Source: a phage
DNA length: 64,000 nucleotides
Reading direction: 5' to 3' (one strand)
NCBI GenBank assembly: GCA_022979955.1
Contig: GCA_022979955.1_3642.1
Shown here: positions 22,686 through 47,596 of the stretch, in pieces
Layout: every line of letters starts with the position of its first letter
How positions within the stretch are numbered: position 1 is the stretch's first letter
Notes under the pieces: model-generated
What the model was told of the DNA's origin: nothing
Seen by the model: only the letters and a program-made list of their open reading frames with translations
Databases searched by the model: none
Program-made: the position numbers and the translations under genes

Positions 22686-25049
22686 ATGAGTATGTGGTCT
22701 TTCGATTTTGAGTCATCCGGTTTGCTGGAAGACCCAGATCTTTATTATCACTGCGGTCTGTTTAAAGAGCTGAATAAGAACCGTTTTATGCTGTTCCTTC
22801 CTCTAAATGACCGCACACACTACTCCGAGGAGGATATAGAAAAGGCTAAGAACTTCATTCTGGCAAAGAAAACTCTTTATAAAGATTTTGAAGTTCGCAT
22901 AGCAGATTTTTCGGAGTTGGAAGGTTGGCTTACAGGCAATTCTGACTGGTCACCAACAGCTTTGAACTGCCATAACTGCTACAGTTATGACTTTATGCTG
23001 ATGGAAAGATTATCCGGTATTCATTTTGACATGTTCCGTGATCCTAAATGCATGGGGACTATCAACGACCACCAGGTTAACCTGTTTGATACGTTGGCGA
23101 TGAGTCGAATCTTGTGGCCTGATCGCCCTTTACCAAAAGGTTGTCCGGACTCTGTATTCAACCCGGTCACTAAGAAAATGCAGCCTGTTGGTCCTCACGG
23201 CCTTATGGCATGGGGCTATGCTCTTGGTAACCAGAAAGTTCAAATTGATGACTGGCGCGATCTTCCGTTATGGAAGTATGTGGATCGTGTATTTGAGGAC
23301 GTTATCATCCAGGAGCTGCTCTGGAAAGAACTGGTAGCGGAATCAAAAGGTGTATTCTACGGCAAGTCTGACATGCAGAACTTTATGTACGATCCTGCCA
23401 AAGAGAAGCCGAAAGGGTTCAAGAAGATCACCTGGAAGAACGCACTACGCCGAGGCATGCTGCAGCACTTCCTGATGGAGCTGCAGGCCCGTCAGGGTGT
23501 GTATTTTGACATAGATGGAGCTATTGCTTTACGTGACCGTTGTGATGCGTGGATGAAAGAAATAGCTGATCGTGTTGAACCACAACTACCTTTAAAAGAG
23601 CTGTCAATGTCTCAGCGGCCCAAGTTCCCTGAAAAGCCGTTTAACCAAGATGGGACAATCTCCAATAATGGTTGGAAATGGTTAAAAGATAAGCTTGGCT
23701 ATCCTGTAGACATGAGCGCTTTAGAGTTCAAAGCCCCGCCTAAGCGAGCATTTACCTCCACAGGAGATGTCAGTAAGATGGGGATAAAATGGTGTGAAGA
23801 GATGGGCTGCAAAGACCCTGATAAGATGGCTGATTTCTTGAGAGGCTATATTAAGGGCACTTCCACACCACAACCTTTACCTAAAGAGCTGATGGATCAG
23901 GCAATAAGTGATCTACAGCAGAAGCGAATGCCGGACTGCAAGATACCTATGAAAATCAGCAATCAGGACGACATTAAGCGATACCTGATCAGTGCTGGTT
24001 GGCTTCCGACAATGTGGAGAACTAAGGATGTAACTAAAGACAGCAAGAAGAAAGCTCTACCTGATGCAGATGTTGATGCACGAGTATATGCATATATGGA
24101 CGAGCTTTTAGAGTCAGAGTATTGTGACCTGATTATCAACTTCTGGAACAAAACTGATGCTAAGTTCCAGACAACCGTGCACAAGTTCCGAAGCTTTCCT
24201 AACTCCGAAAGGATTAAAAAGGAAGTATTCGGGAAAATACGTAGAAAAGCTAGGGCACTTATTACTTCTCCGCAACTGAAAGATACGTTTGGACACCTAT
24301 GCCCTAATCTTGAAAAATTGAACGGAGAGATGGCTAAAGATATCGTCTTGTGGTTATCATTGCGAAACCGCAGATCGGTCCTTGATCCAATCAAGGAGGA
24401 TAAGGTTGATACTGGTCTTCTTAATCACCCACGTTTGAAGATTGACCATAAGCTTCCTGCTAAAAGTTCTGGATTAACAAACACTTCCCGACAGAAACAC
24501 AGTATTTGTGCAAACATGCCTAAACCATCTCCTAAAGTGGTTATGGGTAAAGAGATGCGTAGTCTGTGGGGTGTTCCTCCAGGATACTTTGAGATCGGTA
24601 TTGACGGGTCCAACTTAGAGCAGCTTATCGGGGCTTGGGGTGCCTTTGAGTTCGACAACGGCCTGTATTACGATGTTGTAAGTAACGGAGACGCACACCA
24701 AAACAATGCTGAGGCATATACAAAAGTAGCAGGCAGAGAGGTGTCCCGTAACGACGGTAAACCTATCACGTATGGGGTTATGTACGGAGCACAAAAAGAT
24801 AAAGTTGCAGATATGCTGGACATCTCTCCAGAGTTGGGACAAAGGGTAATCGATGCGCTTTGGGATGCCAACCCTGGTCTTAAGGGCCGTAAAGAGGATC
24901 TGGAGAAATTCTGGGAAGCAACGGGTAAGAAGTTTATCTACTCTTTTGATGGTCATGCCATCTGGACCAGATCTAAACACTCTTTACTTAATGCATACCA
25001 ACAGAATGGTGGTGCATCGCTGTGTGACTTGGTTGGGATACTCATGCAC
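22686..25049 (+). CDS. DNA polymerase family A (T7/Pol I-like), exon 1
   Basis: N-terminal 3'-5' exo motif SFDFESSGL...HCG; motif A-like IDGSNLEQL; motif B RNDGKPITYGVMYGA; reading frame continues to a stop at 25115 inside the putative intron. Confidence 0.7.
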
Positions 25050-25385
25050 CACCAAATGGTGAAGCGTGGGTGGTACGATGAAGGTGTTCGCCGTATTATT
25101 TATTACCATAAATAACATTGTGGCTTCATAGAGTAATCTATGTCGAATAACCTCTTTAACTGCGGGAAGCCTAAACCTTATGGCAAGGTAATCCGCAACG
25201 AAGCGCTCAAAAGAGCGAACGCTCAGAGGCCATTCCGAAAGGAAGTAGACCAGCAAGTGCGGTCGAAATGGGAGGATTCCTGTGGTTGCTTATCATAGGA
25301 ATATGAGATGGTCCGATCCTACGTGAAAACGTATGGCTATGCACGTAATGGTGCGGGGTAGCTTAACGACCTACCTGAACTATTG
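25050..25385 (+). ncRNA. putative group I self-splicing intron, ORF-less
   Basis: 336-nt insert between in-frame polymerase segments; P-like AACUGCGGGAAG (25159-25170), Q-like AAUCCGCAAC (25190-25199), R-like GUAGACCA (25245-25252), S-like GAGAUGGUCC (25305-25314), GNRA-capped hairpin UUCC-GAAA-GGAA; ends in G at 25385; exact junctions uncertain. Confidence 0.5.
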
Positions 25386-33697: not shown

Positions 33698-33740
33698 TAT
33701 TTTAAGTTATCAGGTTGCCAGAGATCAGGAGGATTTCTAA

Positions 33741-34190
33741 AATGGATTTCCTCCTTTTGATATTTCACCGGGCCGGATATTTTAAAATTCTTAGAAAATC
33801 AGAAAATGGATCGAAAACTAAAATGGATTTTTCAGAGTAGGCGCGACAAGCTGAATAACTCATCCTATCGTTTGCACCATATTCCAGGCCACCATTATAG
33901 ATTTCCCACACATGCTAACCTCTCTCTACTAGAACTTCCTCCACTTACCCTTGACCTTCTATGGTAACAATCTAACCGCTATCTTGAAGTTGCGGTGCAG
34001 CTTTCCAGGTACTCGATCTACTTTTCATTTCAGGGCTTGGATTTTCTGAAAATTTTTCTCGATAAATTTCTCAGTACTCGATCTGTTTTTCGTTTTCTGA
34101 ATCGGATTTTCTGGAAATCGTTCCGGCTCTCAACCTGAAATTTTGGGGACGAAATCGATTTTTCGTTTTCAGAAATGGATTTTTAAAATT
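33741..34190. repeat. iteron-like short direct repeat cluster
   Basis: Recurring AAAATGGAT(T), GGATTTTCTG, GTACTCGATCT and TTTTCGTTTTC units in an ORF-free, AT-rich stretch. Confidence 0.5.
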
Positions 34191-34331
34191 TCTATATGGG
34201 AATATTTTAGTGGATACTATTTTATAGTAAATTGTTACGGAGGGTAATTAGCGTGCTAATTAAATTTATTAAATGCGAGGAGTTCTCATTTAGAATTTTG
34301 AATGATAATCATTCTCGTTTGCAGAATAATG

Positions 34332-34354
34332 GGCAGGCCCGGTGATTGTCTCCC
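34332..34354 (+). repeat. 23-nt repeat GGCAGGCCCGGTGATTGTCTCCC, copy 1
   Basis: Exact reverse-complement copy at 43757-43779; degenerate copy at 34471-34488. Confidence 0.6.
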
Positions 34355-34470
34355 GGCCCCTGCTGCCCCGGCTTGTTATTATAGTATCACACAGGACAAA
34401 GAAAGCAAGGATTTTTTGCATAAACTTTTAAATGATAATGATAACCGTTCTCATTTTATGCAGCGCCCAT

Positions 34471-34488
34471 CCCCGGTGGTTGTCTCCC
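34471..34488 (+). repeat. degenerate copy 2 of the 23-nt repeat
   Basis: CCCCGGTGGTTGTCTCCC preceded by the same AATGATAA...TTCTC context as copy 1. Confidence 0.5.
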
Positions 34489-34711
34489 CCGTCACCGGTG
34501 CCTGCCGTCCTTTCGATAGGTATATTGTGCCACCTGGCGGGGCCGCTGTCAACACTTTTCAAAAAATTTTTCTAACCTGATGCGCTAACCGCTGCAACCT
34601 GGCGGGGCCAGCCTGGCAGGACCTAACTGACCAGGTAGGAGAGAATGAAGGCTTGTAAACCTGGTGGGCCTATGCTATAGGAGAGGTAACAATTGAAGAG
34701 GAGGTACAAAA

Positions 34712-34888
34712 ATGGAAGGTAATATGATCCCCCTGGAAAATGTAGCTATTAATGACGCTGAGGCTATCGCCCTGGTTGAAAAGGCTATGGCGGGAGCGTT
34801 GGAATATAAAGAAGAGTACGAAAAAATGATGGTTAACCTGGCAGGGGCGGCGGCTGGAGAATTCCGCCCAAAAAATAATTTTAACTAA
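34712..34888 (+). CDS. small hypothetical protein (58 aa)
   Basis: ATG after GAGGAGG; first gene of the small-gene array. Confidence 0.4.
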   Translation: MEGNMIPLENVAINDAEAIALVEKAMAGALEYKEEYEKMMVNLAGAAAGEFRPKNNFN

Positions 34889-34891
34889 TGG

Positions 34892-34920
34892 TTGACAGCT
34901 CGGACAGTTCTTGTTATTCT
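34892..34920 (+). promoter_or_regulatory. sigma70-like promoter
   Basis: TTGACA-17-TATTCT. Confidence 0.5.
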
Positions 34921-34973
34921 TATCCTCACAAGGTGAACAACACCACACTAATTAACAGAGAGGATAAAAAATC

Positions 34974-35171
34974 ATGAACGCCTACGGAATCAAAGTACGT
35001 CGCAGCACTCGCCAGGTGGTCACCGATCAAATGGTTTGCCAGGTGGATGTAACCATCAACAACGGGCAAGGCCTTTATAAATTTCGTCGCGGTCATAGCT
35101 ATACCCTGCAACAGCTTAATCGTTGCGCCCTGACAAAAGGCCAGATCAACCACTGGTTTAATAAAAAATAA
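34974..35171 (+). CDS. hypothetical protein
   Basis: 65-aa basic ORF with AGAGGA SD. Confidence 0.45.
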   Translation: MNAYGIKVRRSTRQVVTDQMVCQVDVTINNGQGLYKFRRGHSYTLQQLNRCALTKGQINHWFNKK

Positions 35172-35174
35172 ATA

Positions 35175-35203
35175 TTGACATATAGTCTGACACAAAATAT
35201 ACT
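35175..35203 (+). promoter_or_regulatory. sigma70-like promoter
   Basis: TTGACA-17-TATACT. Confidence 0.55.
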
Positions 35204-35235
35204 GAAATCACAAAAGACACTAAGAGGATAAAATC

Positions 35236-35634
35236 ATGAAAACCACAACCTTTAATTTTGATAATGCCGACTTCTCTTTTTCTGATGTCAAGAACTGCCG
35301 CCGTGATCGTGGATTTTACAAGGCTTATAATCTGGTTGGCCTGGACGATGATAATAATTTGCACGAAGTAGCGGAGATCCGGTACTATGCCGCCGCCAGC
35401 GGTAACACTAACTATTGCGTTTTTTGGATACACGACAACAAGAACAATAAGTACGGTTATACTGGCGGCAAGGCGAGCGGTCACGGTTATGATAAAGCTA
35501 ACGCAGCACTTGAGAGCGCATTAAATGCTATGGGGATCACTGCCAACGGCTGGGTCTATGAAGAAGAGTTTTTGTCGGCACTTGCTGACCATCTAGGCTA
35601 TAAAAAGCACATTGTAACATGCGCCCACGAATAA
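35236..35634 (+). CDS. hypothetical protein
   Basis: 132-aa ORF with AAGAGGA SD. Confidence 0.45.
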   Translation: MKTTTFNFDNADFSFSDVKNCRRDRGFYKAYNLVGLDDDNNLHEVAEIRYYAAASGNTNYCVFWIHDNKNNKYGYTGGKASGHGYDKANAALESALNAMGITANGWVYEEEFLSALADHLGYKKHIVTCAHE

Positions 35635-35640
35635 AAATCA

Positions 35641-35668
35641 TTGACACGCTGCAAAATTTAAGTAAACT
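35641..35668 (+). promoter_or_regulatory. sigma70-like promoter
   Basis: TTGACA-16-TAAACT followed by leader hairpin GGGAA-TGT-TTCCC. Confidence 0.5.
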
Positions 35669-35716
35669 AGGCACAAAAGGTGGGAATGTTTCCCGCCAAC
35701 ACGAAGGAAAAAGATC

Positions 35717-36121
35717 ATGAATAAGAACATACGCCGCATCATGAACGAACTGGCAAACGATGAAAAAATTATTGACATGCATTTAGTCAACATTTGCCGC
35801 CGTTGTGTAACATATAACAACCGCGCCGCAAAAGCGCGTGAGATGAACGCAAAAGGCACCTTAAAGCCATTCCAGGTGGTGGTAAAGGCCATTAAAGATG
35901 TAACTAATACGGCAAACCAGGTACAGGGGAACACCAACGAGAGTACCAATATTGATCCGGCTTACATCATGAAACGGATCCGGACCTGCAAGAACAAAGA
36001 GCAAGTGTATAATGTCATAGACTGGTTGGATTCTATGGGCGATGTGGTTTACAATAGGTTTTCTGCAGCTATCGAGATCCAGCTTGACAGGTTGGACGGT
36101 AAAGTACTGAAAACTTACTAA
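35717..36121 (+). CDS. hypothetical protein
   Basis: 134-aa ORF with AAGGAAAAAG SD. Confidence 0.45.
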   Translation: MNKNIRRIMNELANDEKIIDMHLVNICRRCVTYNNRAAKAREMNAKGTLKPFQVVVKAIKDVTNTANQVQGNTNESTNIDPAYIMKRIRTCKNKEQVYNVIDWLDSMGDVVYNRFSAAIEIQLDRLDGKVLKTY

Positions 36122-36139
36122 GTTTATTTTTAGATGGCC

Positions 36140-36169
36140 TTGACTCCAGGGTCATCAATAAAGTAAACT
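36140..36169 (+). promoter_or_regulatory. promoter within repeated 50-nt cassette (copy A)
   Basis: TTGACT-18-TAAACT inside TTTATTTTTAGATGGCC-TTGACT-CCAGGGTCATC cassette. Confidence 0.5.
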
Positions 36170-36202
36170 AATCTCAACTAAGCGAAAAAGGGGGGCTTTA
36201 AG

Positions 36203-36322
36203 ATGAGCACTACACGCCAATACACAAAGGTAACTATTATCGTTTGCGTTGTCGGTTACATCCTGGCGCAAATGTTAATGAGTAGCGCTAACAGTTTTGC
36301 AAAATTTTTCTTAAATTTTTAA
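36203..36322 (+). CDS. small hydrophobic peptide (39 aa)
   Basis: ATG after AAAGGGGGG; predicted single TM helix; below ORF-track cut-off. Confidence 0.35.
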   Translation: MSTTRQYTKVTIIVCVVGYILAQMLMSSANSFAKFFLNF

Positions 36323-36350
36323 TTGACAAACTAACTTAGATCGATATACT
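36323..36350 (+). promoter_or_regulatory. sigma70-like promoter
   Basis: TTGACA-16-TATACT followed by leader hairpin GGGAAAACTTCCC. Confidence 0.55.
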
Positions 36351-36401
36351 TAAACACGTAAACGGGAAAACTTCCCAGAGCACACAAAAGGAGAAAACAC
36401 C

Positions 36402-36743
36402 ATGACTACTATGACCGCCGCAGAAAAAGCTATGCAGATCGCCGCGCTGAAAAAACAGATCGCAGACCTTGAGAATAAGATCGATAACTTTGAAATCGAC
36501 GAGGACAAGTACGACGAAAACTATGATGAATGGTTAGACGAGATCTACGGCGAAATCATGATCGGAAACATTTCTTTTCTTCCGTCGCGTATCCTCAAGG
36601 AGCTAGATCCTATCGCTTACCGCTGCGGATTTAGCGACTACATCGACAGCCTGGATATTGAGGACGATGAAGAATACCAGGAATTACAGACAGAGCTCGA
36701 AGAAGTGAAAGAAGAGCTTGCAGAACTGGAAGAAAACGAGTAA
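36402..36743 (+). CDS. highly acidic coiled-coil-like protein
   Basis: 113-aa ORF rich in D/E with AAGGAGA SD. Confidence 0.45.
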   Translation: MTTMTAAEKAMQIAALKKQIADLENKIDNFEIDEDKYDENYDEWLDEIYGEIMIGNISFLPSRILKELDPIAYRCGFSDYIDSLDIEDDEEYQELQTELEEVKEELAELEENE

Positions 36744-36761
36744 ATTTATTTTTAGATGGCC

Positions 36762-36791
36762 TTGACTTCAGGGCCATCAATAAAGTAAACT
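36762..36791 (+). promoter_or_regulatory. promoter within repeated 50-nt cassette (copy B)
   Basis: TTGACT-18-TAAACT; -35 hexamer sits between inverted repeat GATGGCC/GGCCATC. Confidence 0.5.
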
Positions 36792-36832
36792 TTAGACTGT
36801 TAACACTTAACCAATACAGAGGAGTTAAAACC

Positions 36833-37078
36833 ATGGCCGCACTAATTACCAAATATTATGCCCCTACCAACACCAAAAGCGCCCGTATCATGGTAAAAGG
36901 CTTCGGACGTAAAAAGGTTTACACCTGGGATTATGCCTTAGACACGGAAGACAACTACACCAACGCGATGACCGATTTTATTAATGATCTGAACACGCGG
37001 ATCTTAACAAATTATAAAATTACCGACATTGCTTATATAGGTGAAGGCGGGATCTGTTTTGTAGGCATTGTGAAATAG
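36833..37078 (+). CDS. hypothetical protein
   Basis: 81-aa ORF with GAGGAG SD. Confidence 0.45.
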   Translation: MAALITKYYAPTNTKSARIMVKGFGRKKVYTWDYALDTEDNYTNAMTDFINDLNTRILTNYKITDIAYIGEGGICFVGIVK

Positions 37079-37152
37079 TTATTTTTTCGGTGGTCCTGGC
37101 TGCAGGGCCATCTATAAAGATAATTTATTAACACAATGAAAGGAGAAAGTAC

Positions 37153-37506
37153 ATGATCAGCGGGGCAAGTTTTATTATTGGCGCTATTGCTACGGCTTTA
37201 ATTGTAAACAAGATCCAATCTAAAAACGAAAAAGAGAGCAACGCGCTCACAGAATACCCATTTTGGGTATTCAACGACAATGAAGACTACATTATCAAGT
37301 ACAAGAATGAGAAGGGCGACCAGGTAACACCGCGACCGATCCCAGCTTACAAGATGCAAGAAACACTATACCGCCTAAAGGCTGGAGGCGCAAAAATCGT
37401 AGACTTTTGGGGATATGATTGCAAGGATCAGGAGGTTATAAAACGGCGTATCCGGGCGATTCAGGCAAATATTGAAGTTAGCAAGGGGGGAATATATGAA
37501 GATTAA
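37153..37506 (+). CDS. hypothetical protein with N-terminal TM helix
   Basis: 117-aa ORF with AAAGGAGA SD. Confidence 0.45.
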   Translation: MISGASFIIGAIATALIVNKIQSKNEKESNALTEYPFWVFNDNEDYIIKYKNEKGDQVTPRPIPAYKMQETLYRLKAGGAKIVDFWGYDCKDQEVIKRRIRAIQANIEVSKGGIYED

Positions 37507-37693
37507 TTTTGAGAAGATTGTAAAGCGATCTCATGATTCCGAAGAGTTGCCGGAACGCCGCCAGCGCAACAATAAATTGAATAAGCCAAAAAGATTTGGG
37601 AAGATCTGGCGGAATCATTATGATCGTAAATTGCCGGGCCTACTTTTGGAACGTGAACGACAGGCGGAACGATACCGCCACAAAGGCAAATAA
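37496..37693 (+). CDS. small basic protein
   Basis: ATG after AAGGGGGG; overlaps upstream stop; Lys/Arg-rich. Confidence 0.4.
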   Translation: MKINFEKIVKRSHDSEELPERRQRNNKLNKPKRFGKIWRNHYDRKLPGLLLERERQAERYRHKGK

Positions 37694-37701
37694 CAACCAA
37701 C

Positions 37702-37730
37702 GCCCCGCCATTGTGCGGGGCTTTTTATTT
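37702..37730 (+). terminator. rho-independent terminator
   Basis: GCCCCGC-CATTGT-GCGGGGC hairpin followed by TTTTTATTT. Confidence 0.65.
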
Positions 37731-37851
37731 CTATCATACGAATAGCGCCCCTGGTTGGCCCTGTAAGCGCCAAAAAGGCCCCCACCTATGCAATCGCCCC
37801 CTTTAACCTGAAAACATCGCCCAGGGCCGTTTTATGGCGTTAAAAATATCA

Positions 37852-37879
37852 TTGACATCGTCAACAGGTTAGCTATACT
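37852..37879 (+). promoter_or_regulatory. sigma70-like promoter
   Basis: TTGACA-16-TATACT. Confidence 0.55.
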
Positions 37880-37911
37880 AACCACATCAAAGAGAGGAAG
37901 GAGTAAACGCC

Positions 37912-38172
37912 ATGCGTAAATTAAAAAATTTTGATAAAGTTGATGTTATCCTGAATAATTTTTACTACTGCAACAACAAGGCTATTTGGTGGCGTGATAG
38001 TTCCACCGATAAAGTCAAGGCGCGCTTTCTCCAAGGGCACTGGCAAGGCCGCCCAGTGATTAAAATCATGGGGCAATTGGTAGCGTTTAAAAATTGCCGC
38101 CGTGTTGATGACGTTGAGGAGATTTTAAACATTTTGCGCCACAATAATTTAAAAAATAGTGTTGACAAGTAA
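37912..38172 (+). CDS. hypothetical protein
   Basis: 86-aa ORF with GGAAGGAG SD. Confidence 0.45.
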   Translation: MRKLKNFDKVDVILNNFYYCNNKAIWWRDSSTDKVKARFLQGHWQGRPVIKIMGQLVAFKNCRRVDDVEEILNILRHNNLKNSVDK

Positions 38173-38189
38173 ATCTCAATAAGTATACT
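38162..38189 (+). promoter_or_regulatory. sigma70-like promoter
   Basis: TTGACA-16-TATACT followed by leader hairpin GGCGGGAA-AACT-TCCCGCC. Confidence 0.55.
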
Positions 38190-38246
38190 TAAACACACAG
38201 GCGGGAAAACTTCCCGCCACTAACAAAGAAAATAGGAGAAAATATC

Positions 38247-38870
38247 ATGACCACCGTTAACATTACCGCAGGTTACAATTTATCTTTCGACGTGCTGACC
38301 GACGAACAAAAAGAAAAAGCTATTGAAATGGTCCGCGAAAGAGAAGAACACAGTGGGGATAACTTTTTTGCAGAAAGTGTAATTGAATACTATAAAGAAT
38401 ATGTTTTTCCAGAGTACGGGCTTGAAGATACAAAAGTACATTGGTCAGGCTTTTGGTGCCAGGGTGACGGCGCGTCAATCAGTGCGGAAAACGTGGATTT
38501 AGAAAAATTCTTGCGTAAAGTCAAGTCTCTGACTAAATTCCGCTCAATTCGTCGCTTGTTCGGCACAATGCACGATGGCGAACTATCCGCAAGTGTTGAG
38601 CGTGATCCATATAGCCGCTATAGTCACGAAAACACTGTAAGCGGGTACATCGATACTACATGGCTAGACCTGACCGCCAAACAAGAAAATAAAGTGGAAG
38701 ATCTGGAAGAGCTGATCACCGAGACGGTACGGGAGCTATCCCGCAAGGTTTACGTAGACCTGGAGGAGGCCTATCTAGAACAGTTCACTACCGAAAACCT
38801 GATCGGCCTTATTGAGGCCAATGATTGGCGGTTTGATGTAGATGAATATGGAGAGATGAGTTTTTCATAA
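38247..38870 (+). CDS. hypothetical protein
   Basis: 207-aa acidic ORF with TAGGAGA SD. Confidence 0.5.
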   Translation: MTTVNITAGYNLSFDVLTDEQKEKAIEMVREREEHSGDNFFAESVIEYYKEYVFPEYGLEDTKVHWSGFWCQGDGASISAENVDLEKFLRKVKSLTKFRSIRRLFGTMHDGELSASVERDPYSRYSHENTVSGYIDTTWLDLTAKQENKVEDLEELITETVRELSRKVYVDLEEAYLEQFTTENLIGLIEANDWRFDVDEYGEMSFS

Positions 38871-38959
38871 ATAAAGTGTTGCAATAATCTAAAAACCTGC
38901 TATATTAAAACTCAAGGGGCAAGACGTTTGCCCCCACACAAAACAAAGAGGAAAACATC

Positions 38960-39340
38960 ATGAAAAACACTACTAAAGCTATTGACACCGTCATGTTTAA
39001 CCTAGTTACCTTTCGCGAGGATATGAAAGATCTTCCACGTGAAACAGTGTGCGATCACATTGAAAACTATCGCAAACTAATCAAAGAGTTGCCTTTAAAA
39101 CGTGATCAGTATGCGGCTAACGCCATGCTTAATGCCATGATCAAAAAGATGATCCAGTGTGATTTAACTCTGGCCTATGACTATGCGGGTGGTCGTTTTG
39201 CAGTATACAATCAGCCCGTGCCCGGTATGGGCACCACCGAAGAATTGCACGCGTTAAATCTGAAGCAAGATGTATGGGATAACATGCCCCGCGTGGTGGT
39301 GTGGGCAGAAAGCGGAAAGATTTACGGCGATAATTTTTAA
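38960..39340 (+). CDS. hypothetical protein
   Basis: 126-aa ORF with AAGAGGA SD; leader hairpin GGGGCAA-GACG-TTTGCCCC upstream. Confidence 0.45.
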   Translation: MKNTTKAIDTVMFNLVTFREDMKDLPRETVCDHIENYRKLIKELPLKRDQYAANAMLNAMIKKMIQCDLTLAYDYAGGRFAVYNQPVPGMGTTEELHALNLKQDVWDNMPRVVVWAESGKIYGDNF

Positions 39341-39350
39341 TCAGGTAACA

Positions 39351-39376
39351 GGCGGCATATTTGCCGCCTTATTGTT
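39351..39376 (+). terminator. rho-independent terminator
   Basis: GGCGGCA-TATT-TGCCGCC hairpin followed by TTATTGTT. Confidence 0.55.
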
Positions 39377-39404
39377 AAACAGAACTGCAAAAGAGGTACA
39401 TAGA

Positions 39405-39776
39405 ATGGAATTTATTATTTTGGCTGTAGTAGTTGCCTTGTTCAACGCCTGGATCGCTGGCAAGATAGGTAGATCCGCTTTTCTATGGTTTGTTATATCT
39501 ATTTTCCTGGGAGTGGTTGCAACTATTGTATTGGTTATCCTTGCAATTGTTGACAAGGGCGATAATAGAAAGGGTAAAGTGTTTTCCGACCTGTATGACG
39601 CACAAACGTTTGTCAACGCCTATTATAGTGATCTTCCAGTCTCCCTACGCTGCAGCCTGGCACAACAGGTTTTTGATGAGGCTAAAACCAGAGACCAAGC
39701 CCATGAGATATGTTTAACTGAGGCGGATCGCCTATTTGAGAGGAATAGAAAATATGTGGACCAGCCGTTTAAATAA
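39405..39776 (+). CDS. membrane protein (two predicted TM helices)
   Basis: ATG after AAAGAGG; longer ORF start at 39270 would overlap upstream gene and terminator. Confidence 0.45.
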   Translation: MEFIILAVVVALFNAWIAGKIGRSAFLWFVISIFLGVVATIVLVILAIVDKGDNRKGKVFSDLYDAQTFVNAYYSDLPVSLRCSLAQQVFDEAKTRDQAHEICLTEADRLFERNRKYVDQPFK

Positions 39777-39999
39777 CGCCACGTTAATTAATCCCTTTAG
39801 TGAAGATTTGAAGCCAGCCGCCTGGCGTGACGGATTCAATAACGAACGCTTTATTTTCAGGCCTGATCTTGAGGAATTTTATAACAATGGATCGAACAAC
39901 AGCGGAGATAATTTTTCTTGTGATGTGCGTGGTGATGGTACTCCTGGGGGCCATTGTAAACCACGTCACTACTACCAGGAGGAAAGGGGGAGACGATGA
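39754..39999 (+). CDS. hypothetical protein (uncertain frame choice)
   Basis: ATG after GAGAGGAA; an alternative overlapping frame encodes a 41-aa TM peptide. Confidence 0.3.
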   Translation: MWTSRLNNATLINPFSEDLKPAAWRDGFNNERFIFRPDLEEFYNNGSNNSGDNFSCDVRGDGTPGGHCKPRHYYQEERGRR

Positions 40000-40040
40000 C
40001 AACCAAGGATAAGCCCCGCACCGATAAGGTGCGCCAGGTT

Positions 40041-40115
40041 ATGGTATGGCTTGAGATCATCGCCCTTGAAATATTGTTAGGGGTAGGAATGTACTTTATT
40101 GCTATAAGTAACTGA
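40041..40115 (+). CDS. small hydrophobic peptide (24 aa)
   Basis: ATG 9 nt after AAGGTG; followed by terminator. Confidence 0.3.
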   Translation: MVWLEIIALEILLGVGMYFIAISN

Positions 40116-40120
40116 TAACG

Positions 40121-40148
40121 CCCCCGATCATGGGGGCTTAACTTTTTC
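40121..40148 (+). terminator. rho-independent terminator
   Basis: CCCCC-GATCAT-GGGGG hairpin followed by CTTAACTTTTTC. Confidence 0.55.
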
Positions 40149-40254
40149 AAAAAATTTTTCTTCCAGGGTGTTGCAATCTGGTCCGCAATATGGATAATAA
40201 CAATCAACGGGGAAACATCCCCACCAACACAAAAACCAGAAAGGAGAAACAAAA

Positions 40255-40455
40255 ATGAGCAACAATATCCGCGTTATTAACTTCAAAAAAGAAGAAAAAA
40301 TTGCCGTGCTGATTGACGGTCAAGAAATATTCAAGGGGTATTATGAAGATCATCAAACGGCGATTAGTATCACTCGCGTGATTGGTTACCATAATTTTTA
40401 CCCTCAAGGCGCTGAGGCAGCAGTAAAACGAATTAAAGAGATTGTAGGCCTGTAA
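40255..40455 (+). CDS. hypothetical protein
   Basis: 66-aa ORF with AAAGGAGA SD; leader hairpin GGGGAAACATCCCC; promoter-like TTGCAA-17-ATAATA upstream. Confidence 0.45.
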   Translation: MSNNIRVINFKKEEKIAVLIDGQEIFKGYYEDHQTAISITRVIGYHNFYPQGAEAAVKRIKEIVGL

Positions 40456-40474
40456 AATTTATTTTTAGATGGCC

Positions 40475-40504
40475 TTGACTCCAGGGCCATCAATAAAGTA
40501 AATT
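40475..40504 (+). promoter_or_regulatory. promoter within repeated 50-nt cassette (copy C)
   Basis: TTGACT-18-TAAATT; identical GATGGCC-TTGACT-CCAGGGCCATC core to copy B. Confidence 0.5.
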
Positions 40505-40546
40505 TAAACCCTGTTAAAATAATCAGTGCAAAAAGGAGTAATGATC

Positions 40547-40846
40547 ATGTTTATCCAGGCTAATAATCTTTATTTCTTTGATGGTCAGATCGTAGACGGC
40601 GTGGAGGTGGAAATCACCGGGTGCCCTGGCGGTCAGGTTATGACTTTTCGGAATAATGCCTTTGATGATTCTCATATCGTTATGAGAATGGAAGTTAGTA
40701 AGCTGGATGACAAGAAAACACTTATCGACTATTCCGTCAAAGATCATCCAGACTACCACATGATCTATGGTGATTTGTGCATTGTTGACCGTGACAAGGT
40801 GAACGGCATTGTTATAGCCATTGTGAACGATGTTTTCTCTGAATAA
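40547..40846 (+). CDS. hypothetical protein
   Basis: ATG 8 nt after AAGGAG. Confidence 0.45.
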   Translation: MFIQANNLYFFDGQIVDGVEVEITGCPGGQVMTFRNNAFDDSHIVMRMEVSKLDDKKTLIDYSVKDHPDYHMIYGDLCIVDRDKVNGIVIAIVNDVFSE

Positions 40847-41069
40847 TTCCGGCAAATGATGCAAAATAAGGCCCCTAGCAGGGCCTGCAGCGATATAATC
40901 ACATAAAGGCTATGCGGTTGCATGTCCTTTATTATTTTAGCGTTACAGCGGCCCCAAGGCGCTTAAAAAAATTTTTAAAGAAGTACTTGCATCAAGCCCT
41001 ACAATATGGATAATAGGACGTGTCAGGGGGAGGCCCCAATCATTAACCGGATAGATAGGAGTTAAAACC

Positions 41070-41354
41070 ATGGCTATTGTTACCGCTGGCGATGTAGTAG
41101 AAATGGAAGCAAAATACTTAAAAGCGGGTATGCATATCCTACGCAACGATCTTGAACTGGTCCTGACAATGGTTGACTATAACCCAGGGCAAGATTATCC
41201 AAGTGTTGACTACTTTTTTGAGTATGTTGATGAAGAGTTGAAAGAGGATGAGGCCTATTGCGGTGAGTTCTGCAACTTCTTTTGTCCTGATGAGGTTGTA
41301 AAGGTTATCTATCAACCTGGCGTAGCTTTCCCGCTGCACGCTATCAATAAATAA
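41070..41354 (+). CDS. hypothetical acidic protein
   Basis: 94-aa ORF with TAGGAG SD. Confidence 0.45.
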   Translation: MAIVTAGDVVEMEAKYLKAGMHILRNDLELVLTMVDYNPGQDYPSVDYFFEYVDEELKEDEAYCGEFCNFFCPDEVVKVIYQPGVAFPLHAINK

Positions 41355-41416
41355 ACCTGGCGGGGCCGAAAAGGCCCCCGCCTGAAATTATGAAAAATAA
41401 AAAGAGGCAAACTATC

Positions 41417-41650
41417 ATGATGGAACAAATTAAACGCGCTGAGGCTATTAATGGCAATGTGATCTATTTTGTCAGCAAAAACGAAAAAGGCGTACCCTAT
41501 GCGGCGGTAATAGTACAGCCTGACGGCGATTATTGGTGCACTGTGTACGGCGCTTATTCTTTTGGGCGTCCAGTGCATGATAAAATTTTGAAAGTAGCGA
41601 ACCCTACCGGGAAAAATATTACAGCAGAAAAATTTTTTGAAAATAGTTGA
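41417..41650 (+). CDS. hypothetical protein
   Basis: ATG after AAAGAGG; longer ORF start lacks SD. Confidence 0.4.
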   Translation: MMEQIKRAEAINGNVIYFVSKNEKGVPYAAVIVQPDGDYWCTVYGAYSFGRPVHDKILKVANPTGKNITAEKFFENS

Positions 41651-41674
41651 CATGACCATATAAAACTGTAGTAT
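41647..41674 (+). promoter_or_regulatory. sigma70-like promoter
   Basis: TTGACA-16-TAGTAT with TG upstream of -10; leader hairpin GGGGGC-AACAA-GCCCC follows. Confidence 0.5.
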
Positions 41675-41725
41675 ATAAATCAAAGGGGGCAACAAGCCCC
41701 ACCAACCACAAAGAGGATAAAAATC

Positions 41726-41905
41726 ATGGCTATTATTGCAAAGACTGAGATCGTAGGCTTAGATTCTATTCTCCTCGCATATGAGGAAGCTATAGAAATG
41801 TATGTAGTTTCCTATGGTGAGTATATCCGTGAATATAAATCTATTGATCTGGCTTTTGAATGTTATATTCGCCAGGTAAATAAAGCATATGATGATTATC
41901 GTTAA
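41726..41905 (+). CDS. small hypothetical protein (59 aa)
   Basis: ATG after AAGAGGA; below ORF-track cut-off. Confidence 0.4.
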   Translation: MAIIAKTEIVGLDSILLAYEEAIEMYVVSYGEYIREYKSIDLAFECYIRQVNKAYDDYR

Positions 41906-41911
41906 AATAGT

Positions 41912-41939
41912 TTGACAACAATTACAAATCGGGTAGAAT
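41912..41939 (+). promoter_or_regulatory. sigma70-like promoter
   Basis: TTGACA-16-TAGAAT. Confidence 0.5.
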
Positions 41940-41996
41940 GTATTTCGTAGGGGAGACAAGCGCCCCATTAAACGCAACAGGAAGAGGATAAACACC

Positions 41997-42242
41997 ATGA
42001 AAAGCAATAAAGGTTATAACGGTTACAAAAACAAAACTCATTGGAATGTAAGCCTTTGGATTAATAACGATGAGTCATTGTACCGGTTGGCCCAAGGCTT
42101 TATTAACGCTAATGCTAATCGTAATGATGCGGCGCGGGATATGATGCTTTTTCTGGAGCTAACCGGACAAGATAAGACCCCGGACGGCTTCAAGTACAGC
42201 ACTACGGCGATCCGTTCCGCGATGGTTGGAATGAAACACTAA
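41997..42242 (+). CDS. hypothetical protein
   Basis: 81-aa ORF with AAGAGGA SD. Confidence 0.45.
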   Translation: MKSNKGYNGYKNKTHWNVSLWINNDESLYRLAQGFINANANRNDAARDMMLFLELTGQDKTPDGFKYSTTAIRSAMVGMKH

Positions 42243-42319
42243 AAGCACATAGCCGCCTTACCCTGGGGCTGTAGTAGCGGCCCCATGAATAAGGTTACTA
42301 ACAGAAGAGAATAAACACC

Positions 42320-42424
42320 ATGAAACAGAAATTAATCGATGCAGTGATCTTGGTTATTGCCCTTGGTATTGGCCTGATTGCAACCATGTCTAATATGATC
42401 TTGTCTTCCAACGGTATCGGGTGA
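42320..42424 (+). CDS. small hydrophobic peptide (34 aa)
   Basis: ATG after AGAAGAGA; single predicted TM helix. Confidence 0.35.
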   Translation: MKQKLIDAVILVIALGIGLIATMSNMILSSNGIG

Positions 42425-42433
42425 GGTTGGCAA

Positions 42434-42649
42434 ATGATCACTAACAAAACAGGCAAAACAGAATTTTTACGCGGCTTGCAAATAGGTAAGCCTGAGATCT
42501 GGCATTGCACTAAAACACCACGCGACGAAATGAAAGACTTTACCGCCACGCTGAAGCGGGTAAAGATATCCATTACGCAGAAAAAAGCCTTGATAGTGGT
42601 GGAAGGTGAGATCCCTCAAGCCGTTGTTATAGTTGAGCGTACAGCATAG
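42434..42649 (+). CDS. hypothetical protein
   Basis: 71-aa ORF with GGTGAGG SD. Confidence 0.4.
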   Translation: MITNKTGKTEFLRGLQIGKPEIWHCTKTPRDEMKDFTATLKRVKISITQKKALIVVEGEIPQAVVIVERTA

Positions 42650-42740
42650 TTTAATTTATACCGATACCCGAAAATTAACCAACAAAGCATAAACAGGCGG
42701 TTGCCGCCGCCTTAAACGTAGCAGAAAGAGGATAGATACA

Positions 42741-43025
42741 ATGAAAAAGATGATCGCAGTGGTTGCCCTGGTTGTTGGACTTAATGCGCCTGTAATGGCC
42801 AAAGAGCTGGCAAAAGAGGTAGATCTAACTGATATCCATGCCGTCAATCAAATCGGTGTTACTTATCGCCTATGCCTTGCCGCTAAAACTTTCCAGGATG
42901 GCACGACAGAGTACTACGGATTCGAGGGCGTTCGGTGCGGTGAACTTGCTCACGACCTTAAAGAAGATCCAGACCTGGAGGATCTGCCGATAACCGTAAA
43001 CGGGAAAACTTACGTGAACCGTTAA
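42741..43025 (+). CDS. secreted small protein (signal peptide)
   Basis: N-terminal MKKMIAVVALVVGLNAPVMA signal-peptide-like sequence; AAGAGGA SD. Confidence 0.45.
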   Translation: MKKMIAVVALVVGLNAPVMAKELAKEVDLTDIHAVNQIGVTYRLCLAAKTFQDGTTEYYGFEGVRCGELAHDLKEDPDLEDLPITVNGKTYVNR

Positions 43026-43027
43026 CC

Positions 43028-43162
43028 ATGAGAAAGATAATTATTACCATTGGGATCGTGGCGGCAATGTTGGCGATCTTTCCCTTTATGGTTAGGTATG
43101 TGCTGATTAATGTTGTCCTGGTAGTCAGTGATCTGGTGTTATATATTAACTCATTGTTTTAG
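43028..43162 (+). CDS. small hydrophobic peptide (44 aa)
   Basis: ATG 2 nt after upstream stop; no clear SD; two hydrophobic segments. Confidence 0.3.
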   Translation: MRKIIITIGIVAAMLAIFPFMVRYVLINVVLVVSDLVLYINSLF

Positions 43163-43170
43163 GCGCGATA

Positions 43171-43362
43171 ATGACAGCGGAAGAAGTTAAAAAAGTACTG
43201 GCGGTACTGCGTTATCATAATCATTGCAAGGTGAAGAATGATCCTGATTATCTTGATTCATCCCTTGAAGAGGATACACTACAAGCCATAAGCAACATGC
43301 AAGAATTGCTTAAGCGTATGACAGAGAAAAACCGACCGGACTACATAGGGGGTAAAATATGA
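43171..43362 (+). CDS. hypothetical protein
   Basis: 63-aa ORF. Confidence 0.4.
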   Translation: MTAEEVKKVLAVLRYHNHCKVKNDPDYLDSSLEEDTLQAISNMQELLKRMTEKNRPDYIGGKI

Positions 43363-43670
43363 TCGCTATTACGCCAACCGTTTTAGATTGGTATCGGCAA
43401 CGCATAGCGCCTCCGCTGGCTATCTTCAAAGATGCGGAAGCAAAACAACGCCGGATCTCAATACATGAGATCATCAACCTTAACGCCGGAGGCACACCAT
43501 ACCGCCCAGGACCTGGCCGTGAGATGGACAATACGTTAGCGATCCTGAAGATACGCCGTAAACGGTCCTCCCTTACTCTGGACTCATTACACACAATGCA
43601 GCCTCCGTTCCAGGTGACCGGGAAACGGATCGCCAGGTCCTGGACAAAGGCCAATGATCGGACCGTATAA
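43359..43670 (+). CDS. hypothetical protein
   Basis: 103-aa ORF, ATGA overlap, GGGGG SD. Confidence 0.45.
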   Translation: MIAITPTVLDWYRQRIAPPLAIFKDAEAKQRRISIHEIINLNAGGTPYRPGPGREMDNTLAILKIRRKRSSLTLDSLHTMQPPFQVTGKRIARSWTKANDRTV

Positions 43671-43699
43671 ATAAAAGTGTTTTGGTACTGATTTTGGGG

Positions 43700-43728
43700 T
43701 TGACTTGTTCGGCCCCTTTTGCTATTCT
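43700..43728 (+). promoter_or_regulatory. sigma70-like promoter
   Basis: TTGACT-17-TATTCT, immediately upstream of repeat copy 3. Confidence 0.45.
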
Positions 43729-43756
43729 TATTAAACGGGCGGCACTTGGGAACAGG

Positions 43757-43779
43757 GGGAGACAATCACCGGGCCTGCC
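43757..43779 (-). repeat. 23-nt repeat, copy 3 (inverted)
   Basis: GGGAGACAATCACCGGGCCTGCC is the exact reverse complement of 34332-34354. Confidence 0.6.
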
Positions 43780-43804
43780 TGTCATATAAGAACTATAAAA
43801 ACCG

Positions 43805-43833
43805 TTGACATCTGCCATGGGGTGAGGTAACAT
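43805..43833 (+). promoter_or_regulatory. sigma70-like promoter
   Basis: TTGACA-17-TAACAT followed by leader hairpin GGGCA-AAAG-TGCCC. Confidence 0.5.
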
Positions 43834-43887
43834 TTATCTTGAAGGGGCAAAAGTGCCCACACAACAACCAGGAGAGAGGAAAACACT

Positions 43888-44160
43888 ATGTCAAGCTGGA
43901 TTAATCAAGAAGTCGAATCACGTTTTAATGCTATTTGGGATCTCATCGAAAAAGAGGACGGAACATCAAGCCCCTATCTCAACAATTTGGAATTCCATTT
44001 TGTGGAAGCGATGAACGCAGAACATGATCACGAAGGTGGCGCGGATGAGTTCGCTAAAGGTTATGGCTTTAACAATGCCAACGAAATGATCGAGGCGGTC
44101 GTACTCCAAGCTGAGGAAGATTATCAATTAAAAACGCTTGAATTCTGCCGCCATAAGTAA
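43888..44160 (+). CDS. hypothetical protein
   Basis: 90-aa acidic ORF with GGAGAGAGGA SD. Confidence 0.45.
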   Translation: MSSWINQEVESRFNAIWDLIEKEDGTSSPYLNNLEFHFVEAMNAEHDHEGGADEFAKGYGFNNANEMIEAVVLQAEEDYQLKTLEFCRHK

Positions 44161-44220
44161 TAAGATAATGACACGGGCCAAAAGGCCCACTAATCAGAAC
44201 CGCACAAAGAGGTAAACATC

Positions 44221-44484
44221 ATGAAACGTCTTGATCAGCTCAAATTAGTTCAATATATGGCTTATCGTGTTCTTGAAGTCCAGAAAGGTAGCAAAAAAGA
44301 GGTTTGCGAGAAAGCTTATAAGATCTTCACTCGCAAAAAAGATGACTGGATGCTACGCCAGACTAAAAAGGCTGACATCTTGGGGTACCTGGAAGAAGAG
44401 ATCCGCCTTGAAGAGCAAGAAGAGATCCGCCGTAGTGAGGCAGATTATCAGGCAGCTTGGGAAAACTGGATGAGCAACAAATAA
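44221..44484 (+). CDS. hypothetical protein
   Basis: 87-aa charged ORF with AAGAGG SD; leader hairpin GGGCC-AAAA-GGCCC. Confidence 0.45.
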   Translation: MKRLDQLKLVQYMAYRVLEVQKGSKKEVCEKAYKIFTRKKDDWMLRQTKKADILGYLEEEIRLEEQEEIRRSEADYQAAWENWMSNK

Positions 44485-44540
44485 TACAACAAGTTACATG
44501 GTCAGGGGCAATAAAGCCCCTTGATCACATAAAAATTATG

Positions 44541-44569
44541 CTATCCCTGGTTGACAGGGATCGGCAGTT
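44541..44569 (+). promoter_or_regulatory. sigma70-like promoter with palindrome around -35
   Basis: TTGACA-17-TATATT; TCCCTG/CAGGGA inverted repeat flanks the -35. Confidence 0.5.
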
Positions 44570-44627
44570 TTGCTATATTCTTTTTGAAGGGAAGTTGTAA
44601 GAAAATTAACTAAGAGGTAAAAACACC

Positions 44628-45970: not shown

Positions 45971-46597
45971 GGCGTAGAAACAGTGGAAGTGTAAACAGTC
46001 AATCATGTAAATGATAAGTATGTGAACAGTTATCCATGTAAACTATTAGACATGTAAACAATCAGGTGTGCAAAAGTGTCAAGGGTGTCACCATTGTGTC
46101 TAAAGTGTCGTATGTCATCAGTATGTCAGACAAGTTTTTCTCCTCTTTGTCAAGTGCTGCATGAAAAATTTACAATCTTGTATGGTAGCATTTTTGCGGT
46201 CCTGTTTACATTCAGAGATGTATGTATAATCCTTGTTGTGTGGGCGTTTAGACGTCTAGACGGTCAGAAGTCTGCAGGTCAATATCTAATCTATTGGCTG
46301 CTAACTATATCCCACACAAATAGTAAGAAATATAATTGTTATATGCGTAAACAGTAACCCATGTTATCAATCCCTGTATGGATCGCCAGTGGTGCGCATA
46401 ATGGGTATTATGTTAAATTGCCCGTAATGATAATGGTTCTCACAATGATATGTATTCTCATTCCCCCACACAAAATAGATTGCAAATGTTGTGCCACTAT
46501 GTGAACGGCCTCACCTATTAATTTGCCTCACTGCCTCGATATTTGAGAATTATTATAAGAATGAGAAGTATTCCCATTTCGTCCGCCTGGCAGCGCT

Positions 46598-46657
46598 CCT
46601 GTAGGTCCTGCAAGGACTCTAGCTGAAAGCTAGACCCTTCGGGCCTCCCTGTAGGTC
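46598..46657. other. three consecutive tetraloop hairpins bracketed by CCTGTAGGTC direct repeats
   Basis: GTCCT-GCA-AGGAC, CTAGC-TGAAA-GCTAG, CCC-TTCG-GGG; CCTGTAGGTC at 46598 and 46648. Confidence 0.4.
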
Positions 46658-46705
46658 AGGTCAAAATCGTGGTAGAATTGGGCCTATTCAGATATTTCTG
46701 GCTGG

Positions 46706-46900
46706 CTCTTCAGGTCTGTGTGGGAAAAGCCAACCTCTCCGGCGGGGCAGGGGGAGGTAAATTAAAAAATTTACGGGGTATATGAAGCGCTCTTCAGGTA
46801 AGGCATGTACTATGGGATGAAACCCTCTTCAGGCAATGATATTTGTGGGTGTGATATTTGCTGGAAAGCCAGATATGACGGGACTCCCGGCGGGGCAGGG
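46706..46900. repeat. degenerate tandem unit CTCTTCAGG...CCGGCGGGGCAGGG
   Basis: CTCTTCAGG at 46706, 46790, 46825 (also 47238, 47886); CCGGCGGGGCAGGG at 46739 and 46887. Confidence 0.55.
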
Positions 46901-47596
46901 GTAGTACAGACAGGGAAAATATGAGAATGTAGTTGGGGAAATTGATCAGACAGGTAGAGTATGGAATATGTTACAAGTATGTTAAATATGGAGGTTGAAT
47001 ATCTGTAGGATTTGTGTGTAAAATCAAAGACTTAAGGGGTGTTGTGGTATTTTCTATAAATAATTCAAGTTTAATAGGCAATATTTGTCTCTATCCGCTT
47101 TGTGTGGTAAACAGATTCAGATTAGATTGGTTTACAAGTGTATACATAATATACAAATTAAAGATACAAGAAACCCCCCTCCCCCTTCGGCTACCATTCA
47201 CCTTTTCCTCTGACTGGTACTTAAACACTTATTCAGACTCTTCAGGTTATCACCCATATATCATATGGCAGTGACTGGTGTCCTCCGGCCCCTCTTTCGT
47301 CACCCGTCCGCTTCGCCATGCTAATGCCATAGCTAATGGTTCGGTTGTTCACCCTGTTCACTCAGGTGTATCTCTATACCCCTTCAAACCGAAGAGAACA
47401 GAAAACCCGAATTACTCGGTAAAAGAAAAGAGAAGAACTTAATTTTATCAGGATAGGCAAGAATGTCAAGGCATGACTGCTCACTAAACAAGCAAACAGT
47501 CATGTGTGGGAGGTAAGTGATTGTGGTGGTAGGAAATTTAGTTGAAAGATGTGTTATAGGTGCTTCCAGCACTTTAGCCTGGCAGCTAATTGTGTG

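Follow-up and report, generated by a model that had tools for sequence, protein, structure and literature searches.

We analysed a 64-kb window of phage DNA (64,000 nt; contig GCA_022979955.1_3642.1 of GenBank assembly GCA_022979955.1), in which a 23-nt repeat occurs as an inverted pair among a series of small genes. The window comes from an rV5-like coliphage (Vequintavirus), and the 10 kb round the repeat are 93–96% identical to naam, A6-1, rV5 and others. We found that the repeat marks three paralogous promoter-leader modules per genome, in each of which the same short motif, GGAGACAAWCACCGG, follows a predicted promoter on the promoter's own strand; this anatomy is well supported. As to function, we see about an even chance that the motif is a promoter-leader signal read by the host machinery, in the non-template strand or in the 5′ leader. 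Any specific mechanism is much less supported than the three-module anatomy.

The 23-mer GGCAGGCCCGGTGATTGTCTCCC is present exactly at 34332–34354 (+), and its exact reverse complement lies 9.4 kb away at 43757–43779. As zero chance matches were expected from 100 dinucleotide-preserving shuffles, both the exact search and the shuffles bear out the inverted pair reported in the initial annotation of this DNA. The 17-nt core, GGGAGACAAYCACCGGG, has a third copy with one difference at 34472–34488, in a context duplicated in tandem with ~135 nt periodicity (repeat families D5 and D6, spacing 134–136 nt). The degenerate copy that had been placed at 34471–34488 therefore exists, and in duplicated context, with its coordinates off by at most one base. 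A profile hidden Markov model, built from 30 homologous copies and run against the whole window, returned these three sites only (E = 9e-10, 3e-9 and 4.5e-5; the next-best match had E = 2.9), so that a search for further copies adds none in the window. A GGGGCAGGGGGAGG-like sequence at 46.7 kb was considered as an extra copy and rejected, its match not being significant in the profile search. Below, copy A is 34332–34354 (−), where the minus strand reads GGGAGACAATCACCGGGCCTGCC around the invariant core GGAGACAAWCACCGG; copy B is 34472–34488 (−), core only, where the minus strand reads GGGAGACAACCACCGGG; and copy C is 43757–43779 (+), where the plus strand reads GGGAGACAATCACCGGGCCTGCC.

According to careful annotations of relatives, all three copies lie in gaps without genes, and the naam annotation is empty around copies A and B; this agrees with the initial placing of the copies in gaps free of open reading frames (ORFs). 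The spurious ORFs 34302–34580 (+) and 43573–43833 (−) do both contain GRPGDCLP, as had been noted. Annotated genes from ~31 kb to ~46 kb are all on the plus strand. The idea that the copies bracket the small-gene array holds for the distance between them, but they do not delimit a bounded unit: the array runs to ~46.4 kb, ~2.6 kb past copy C.

Each of the three copies follows a −10 box at a distance of ~23–35 nt, on the strand that reads GGAGACAA (core GGAGACAAWCACCGG). Promoter P_A (34378–34408, −), read from the sequence, has a −35 box TTGCTT at 34408–34403, a 19-nt spacer, which falls outside the criteria of the promoter scan, and a −10 box TATAAT at 34383–34378. Its predicted start is near 34371 (−), and the core begins 23 nt after the −10; orthologues have TTGACA-16-TATTAT or TTGCAA-17-TATATT at the same place. 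P_B (34524–34552, −) is TTGACA-17-CACAAT with a TG extension, has a predicted start near 34517 (−) and is separated from the core by 35 nt after the −10. P_A and P_B are thus tandem leftward promoters, antisense to every neighbouring gene. P1_C (43700–43728, +) is TTGACT-17-TATTCT, also with a TG extension, with a predicted start near 43735 (+) and the core 28 nt after the −10. It is the upstream member of a rightward tandem pair, the downstream member being P2 (43805–43833, +; TTGACA-17-TAACAT), which lies 105 bp after P1_C, corresponds to the annotated rV5 P168 and is followed by a short leader of ordinary type, with a ribosome-binding site for the gene at 43888–44160. The copies are inverted relative to each other because each follows the direction of its own promoter.

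A terminator-like hairpin at 43696–43716 overlaps P1_C. Here, and at the equivalent sites in relatives and in the metagenomic contig L011, the loop of the hairpin contains the −35 box and the promoter spacer contains the T-tract, so that a terminator and the next promoter make up one compact unit between early genes.

The arrangement is conserved. With a 30-nt core query, nearly all complete Vequintavirus genomes matched at three places per record, and by inspection promoter and core are placed in the same way in rV5, naam, ESCO13, CR9, POP18, SSBI34, KaOmega, F1M1E, Hena1, GEC_vB_MG, ZCKP1, KKP_3264 and A7_1. Fourteen loci were fetched from distant genera (which include Phapecoctavirus, Justusliebigvirus, Certrevirus, Seunavirus, Mydovirus and Henunavirus). 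At 13 of them a good promoter, such as TTGCAA-17-TATATT or a TGn-extended TATACT, is followed by 21–36 nt of variable G/C-rich sequence and then by the core; at the GAP31 locus the core was not found by pattern search. For copy C, BLAST alignments to these genera are confined to the promoter-to-core block (query positions 38–93), and for copy A to the stretch from Fur box to core (query positions 3–87). Conservation of the module extends over Vequintavirinae and Stephanstirmvirinae.

The Fur-box-like palindromes in question lie at 34298–34316 (TTGAATGATAATCATTCTC, matching 15/19 of GATAATGATAATCATTATC, 21 nt after the core of copy A on the minus strand) and at 34434–34452 (GATAATGATAACCGTTCTC, 16/19 of GATAATGATAATCATTATC). 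They are the two best matches to the Fur consensus in the window, above a membership bar of ~13/19, and the predicted leftward transcripts would cross them. In Certrevirus and Seunavirus, copy C also has a Fur-like box after it; core and box therefore make a coupled module, from which Vequintavirus copy C has lost the box. When the Fur-box block was compared with 5,426 Escherichia coli genomes by BLAST, there was one marginal 25-nt match. The palindromes suggest iron-responsive control, or titration of Fur by virulent phages. A plus-strand, Fur-repressed promoter making a tiny hairpin RNA was also considered and rejected, as its putative −10 (CAGAAT, CTGAAT, AAAACG) is unconserved. Near-consensus Fur-box palindromes (TGAATGATAATCATTCTC), often in tandem arrays, are also found in L020, L029, L036, L034 and L040, and over ~65 nt the palindromes are ~83% conserved between Vequintavirinae and phages like Aeromonas phage 2L372D (including contigs L026 and L034).

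The core also occurs in phages of another kind. Pattern scans of IMG/VR and metagenomes found it on 42–47-kb contigs and on one 215-kb contig (L011, L082, L085, L090 and L102; Ga0255090_1000022, Ga0228700_1000372 and ERZ650304.5-NODE-5), in at least 28 distinct copies, with at least 11 on one 42-kb contig. Every metagenomic copy has a TATAAT box 21–22 nt before it, with a terminator hairpin immediately ahead of the box. Most are then followed by TGTAAC..TGTAA repeats, a second promoter, a normal leader and a gene, a P1/P2 layout like that of copy C; the TGTAAC..TGTAA elements resemble AUGUAA start-stop sequences. A few copies instead face a terminator ~50 nt downstream and would give ~90-nt orphan RNAs. 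We found no homologous protein between the metagenomic phages (104 kb) and the window with its relatives, and no relative of a metagenomic-phage protein among GenBank phages. In 54 distinct promoter-linked contexts, G-G-A-G-A-C-A-A-W-C-A-C-C is 96–100% invariant except at W: each position of GGAG is kept in 52–54 of the 54, and ACAAWCACC and then GG or GA come after it.

We also looked for the element outside these phages and in the literature. BLAST found no core in the 5,426 E. coli genomes, and a scan of 185,579 bacterial species genomes gave eight hits, which is chance level; a host origin of the core was rejected, since neither scan did better than chance. A tRNA remnant was likewise rejected: the relative OY978796.1 (L015) annotates a 'tRNA-Met' over homologous DNA, but ARAGORN finds no tRNA there or anywhere in the window. 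In the same record, a Klebsiella phage, the tRNA features at 15004–15699 were not found by ARAGORN at those coordinates, and its tRNA annotation seems displaced. Searches of the rV5 and CB7 papers, of sequence strings and of the transcriptome literature gave no known description of the element. In the paper on the rV5 genome, sigma70 promoters and a non-coding box appear but this element does not (PMC3606486), and the paper on Certrevirus CB7 gives a general early promoter only (PMC7344957). The motif is an undescribed, well-conserved promoter-proximal element.

We propose the following model. The 23-mer would be the conserved centre of a promoter-proximal leader of ~55–60 nt, three paralogous copies of which exist per Vequintavirus genome, each transcribed from its own sigma70-type promoter. 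The centre would occupy approximately nt +17 to +45 of the RNA or, as an equivalent alternative, the non-template DNA of the early elongation complex. There, GGAGACAAWCACCGG would be read as a single-stranded, strand-specific signal by the host machinery and not by a phage protein. Host machinery is the favoured partner because the motif is strand-locked to transcription, is asymmetric and is found in phages without common proteins. Our preferred version is a 5′ leader signal that docks the 30S subunit and/or pauses RNA polymerase, which would protect or condition transcripts with long untranslated stretches; in rV5-like copies, the G/C-rich arms would add a weak 5′-terminal hairpin. Of the roles that the initial annotation had considered, regulator binding survives in part: position and conservation point to a strand-specific regulatory signal tied to transcription.

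Two features of the core bear on how it might be read. Firstly, it looks like a real initiation region, with GGAG and a C/A-rich spacer ending in CACC; compare GGAGAAAACACC-ATG in the window and CCGGAGUAAUCACC-AUG at a metagenomic P2. No inspected copy has ATG, GTG or TTG at the equivalent start position, where the core has GG(G). Secondly, by inspection, the core fits the pause pattern G-10/Y-1/G+1, with C at −1. A boxB, a sigma-dependent pause (−10-like GACAAT), a Pho box and sites for CRP, IHF and sigma54 were judged by eye to be absent or unconserved.

The rV5-like copies can be folded individually into a 5′-terminal hairpin in which the transcript start pairs with sequence after the core. 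In KaOmega, for instance, AUAGCGGG would pair with CCCGCUAU, and in copy C of rV5 GGCAGGCACC would pair with GGUGCCUGUC. With the basal helix held in register across an alignment of these copies, 61% of cells were paired, compared with 56% after shuffling and 35–47% when the partner was slid, and double changes occurred in 23 cells where 9.8 were expected. Folding is more favourable for the sense than for the antisense strand, by ~2 kcal/mol (p = 0.002, although the sequences are not independent). Metagenomic copies were essentially unstructured when folded, and no Rfam covariance model matched at the repeats, even with E up to 10.

Several results weigh against the signal that we propose, or against parts of it. 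For structure, RNAalifold gave no consensus pairs over 30 copies (0 pairs), cognate 5′ and 3′ arms paired no better than non-cognate ones (p = 0.65), and the mean folding z-score was only −0.7, with many copies near zero. The structured RNA element of the initial annotation is thus reduced to a weak basal helix, above controls in the rV5-like copies, without a family-wide structure; in our view, what has been conserved is a sequence signal in single-stranded form, with the hairpin a weak, lineage-specific addition. For ribosome docking, an initiation weight matrix made from 34 real sites, with GGG placed at the start, scored the cores at 3.4, 2.1 and 0.0 bits, whereas the median for the real sites was 8.7. 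In the same matrix, copy C reached 10.4 bits in one shifted register. Because of the low scores with GGG at the start, a startless ribosome-binding site is a resemblance that we treat as a lead. For the promoters, all transcription starts were placed by consensus, P_A in the window has a poor −35 box besides its long spacer, and a simple −10 test discriminated poorly, passing 54/77 contexts and also 36/77 AT-rich controls from the opposite strand. Finally, the leftward transcripts from P_A and P_B have no obvious product, and there is no minus-strand terminator after copy A or copy B in the window.

The best-surviving alternative, which we nevertheless consider unlikely, is that the core acts at the DNA level on RNA polymerase or a regulator. 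It could be an ops-like, promoter-proximal pause and loading site, or an operator that forms a roadblock at +20 to +40, and it would act jointly with the operator arrays next to it, which are Fur-like in the rV5-like phages and of the TGTAAC kind in the metagenomic ones. Conservation of primary sequence in a strand-specific manner and without conserved RNA structure would be expected of such a site, as would the fixed −10 spacing of 21–22 nt in the metagenomic family and the match to G-10 ... C-1 G+1. Operator-like repeats always follow the core, whether Fur-like boxes in two spacing classes 6 bp apart or TGTAAC..TGTAA. However, the −10 spacing varies from 21 to 36 nt in the rV5-like phages, the asymmetry of the motif is unlike the operators of dimeric repressors, RfaH ops (GGCGGTAGnnTG) is matched only partly and in few copies, and no common phage-encoded factor was found.

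Returning to the host-read leader signal, a more far-reaching version can be stated, which we regard as speculative and distinctly unlikely. Here GGAGACAAWCACCGG would be a host-factor recruitment signal, ops- or put-like or ribosome-docking, that lets RNA polymerase or the transcript resist termination or decay. Unrelated virulent phages would have come to share it by convergence or by transfer, and a link with Fur operators in the rV5-like phages would make early or origin-directed transcription respond to the iron status of the host.

It is doubtful, too, that the modules encode small trans-acting RNAs with the core as a seed or as a protein-binding 5′ end. Copies A and B do sit at orphan promoters without a downstream gene, and the several metagenomic copies with an intrinsic terminator within ~50 nt would yield ~90-nt RNAs with A/U-rich middles. 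Against this, copies A and B lack the minus-strand terminator that such RNAs would need, and most copies, C included, lead mRNAs with a second promoter and a gene downstream. No complementary target was present in the window at up to three mismatches except the copies themselves, and there was none in the E. coli genomes. The gene layout of Hfq-type small RNAs (promoter plus intrinsic terminator) was not encountered in the window and is seen only at some metagenomic copies.

After crossing the Fur-like palindromes, the predicted leftward transcripts enter an AT-rich non-coding stretch of ~0.6 kb (33730–34290) with iterons 65–73 nt apart and a GC content of 0.31 at 34100–34299, which looks origin-like. 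Copies A and B might therefore belong to origin-activating or primer promoters, their G-rich leader seeding an R-loop into the iterons as at T7 phi1.1A/B or T4 oriF, with copy C a second site or a relic. Besides the aim of the two tandem promoters at this region, the same succession of promoter, G-rich leader, Fur-like boxes and AT-rich repeats in Mydovirus and Aeromonas phage 2L372D favours the idea. We find it improbable all the same: there is no AT-rich region or iteron after copy C in the window, the metagenomic phages carry many copies (at least 11 on a 42-kb contig, as above) before ordinary genes, and the published GC-skew analysis of rV5 has no origin signal here (PMC3606486). The stretch at 33730–34290 also contains AAATGGATTT repeats and GATC sites, and GATC-rich repeats are found at the equivalent place in Mydovirus and Seunavirus relatives.

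The resemblance of the core to real ribosome-binding sites, and of P1 leaders to P2 leaders in the metagenomic phages, could also mean that the copies are neutral relics of duplicated units of promoter and ribosome-binding site that have lost their genes. This is highly improbable: the core hardly varies between genera in which the intergenic DNA around it can no longer be aligned, no start codon stands at that position in any inspected copy, and the core is present in two unrelated phage groups.

We give almost no credence to the recombination sites that had been suggested, whether as crossover points for a 9.4-kb inversion or as copies kept identical by recombination, despite the exact, inverted 23-bp identity and a variable 3′ arm allele that is the same in copies A and C in six genomes (gcctgcc in five, gggtgcc in rV5; the window set against L001, L016, L043, L064 and L087/L101): a synthetic A/C inversion junction was found in one piece in 0/122 related genomes, and naam aligns as a single collinear piece over both copies. 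In 62 records, 80% or more of the region is covered on a single strand. The orientation of a copy is always that of its promoter, and an identity of 23 bp is little for homologous recombination to act on. Ten flanking proteins, examined without an exhaustive search of the array interior, carry no recombinase signature; they matched nothing in Pfam and, in PHROGs, only families without a known function. The shared 3′ arm alleles hint at concerted evolution of the paralogues, by rare gene conversion or co-selection.

Some further features of the window were noted. Many genes of the small array (34890–44580, +) have their own promoter of the TTGACA-16/17-TATACT type and a GGAG-N8-ATG ribosome-binding site, and often a short hairpin at the 5′ end (GGGAAAACUUCCC, for example). 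Where gene orientation switches, at 46400–47450, there is another non-coding region, ~1 kb long; it has four further Fur-like half-palindromes (46423–46460 and 46544–46576) and the repeats CTCTTCAGG and CCGGCGGGGCAGGGG. The sole Rfam match at the gathering score in the window is a group I intron (RF00028; 25100–25335, +; 64.7 bits), which starts where an 809-amino acid ORF (22686–25115) stops. This ORF appears to belong to the DNA-polymerase region, with the polymerase gene split by the intron, an assignment made because of synteny with rV5 ORF228. Lastly, ~20 GenBank records (MG0656xx) named 'Campylobacter phage' are 93–100% identical to this E. coli rV5-like phage, and their host label is doubtful.

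Phages of the rV5 type are widely used candidates for therapy and biocontrol, and their regulation is essentially unmapped. What was an anonymous repeat becomes a defined unit of promoter, 15-nt invariant leader signal and operator array, which marks one tandem promoter as well as two orphan antisense promoters next to a probable origin; unrelated uncultured phages employ this signal dozens of times. Parts of this unit can be set beside known systems. The palindromes agree with Fur boxes, such as the iucA operator, at 15–16/19 positions of GATAATGATAATCATTATC and in the 7-1-7 pattern TGAnAATnATTnTCA, but they lie downstream of the promoter and not over it, and the phage consensus favours TGAGAAT/ATTCTCA. 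The two tandem promoters of copies A and B, directed into AT-rich repeats, recall the T7 phi1.1A/1.1B origin and T4 oriF/oriG, although here the promoters are of the host sigma70 type, the same leader also precedes ordinary genes, and the origin role is putative. In geometry, the injection-stop repeats of T5 are similar, being conserved inverted repeats that lie, again in a large virulent coliphage, in large untranslated regions on either side of a few kb with small early genes. Those repeats (IRC-spacer-IRD and IRD′-spacer-IRC′) are 131 bp long and carry DnaA boxes in pairs, and no role as promoter leaders is described for them (bioRxiv 10.1101/866236). The core query matched no T5-like phage, and we take T5 as a geometric analogue only.

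The closest comparisons are with signals carried near the 5′ end of a transcript. The STAB-SD and phage SP82 polypurine stabilisers of Bacillus have, like the core, a GGAG that resembles a Shine-Dalgarno sequence close to the 5′ end and that no start codon follows; the differences are a Gram-negative host, the further invariant ACAAWCACCGG and the low score in the initiation weight matrix, and a stabilising effect of the core is only putative. RfaH ops and consensus pause sites are, like the core, strand-specific signals of 12–15 nt in the non-template strand of a leader, 20–40 nt after the start, but the core is not GGCGGTAGnnTG, and fragments such as GGCGGTAG or GGTAGCGTG occur only in the variable, unconserved flanks of some copies. 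Just after early promoters, lambda nut and HK022 put form short transcribed elements that act with host machinery. They too occur as inverted genomic copies read from diverging promoters, and the core is likewise in the transcript soon after its predicted promoter. Unlike them, the core matches neither boxA nor boxB, lacks the two-stem architecture of put and any conserved secondary structure, and in copies A and B has no downstream genes to antiterminate. If the motif serves only as an RNA-stabilising leader, it would still be a useful annotation feature for finding early promoters. If it does recruit a host factor, it would be a new member beside the promoter-proximal signals nut, put and ops, and possibly a compact part for phage engineering.

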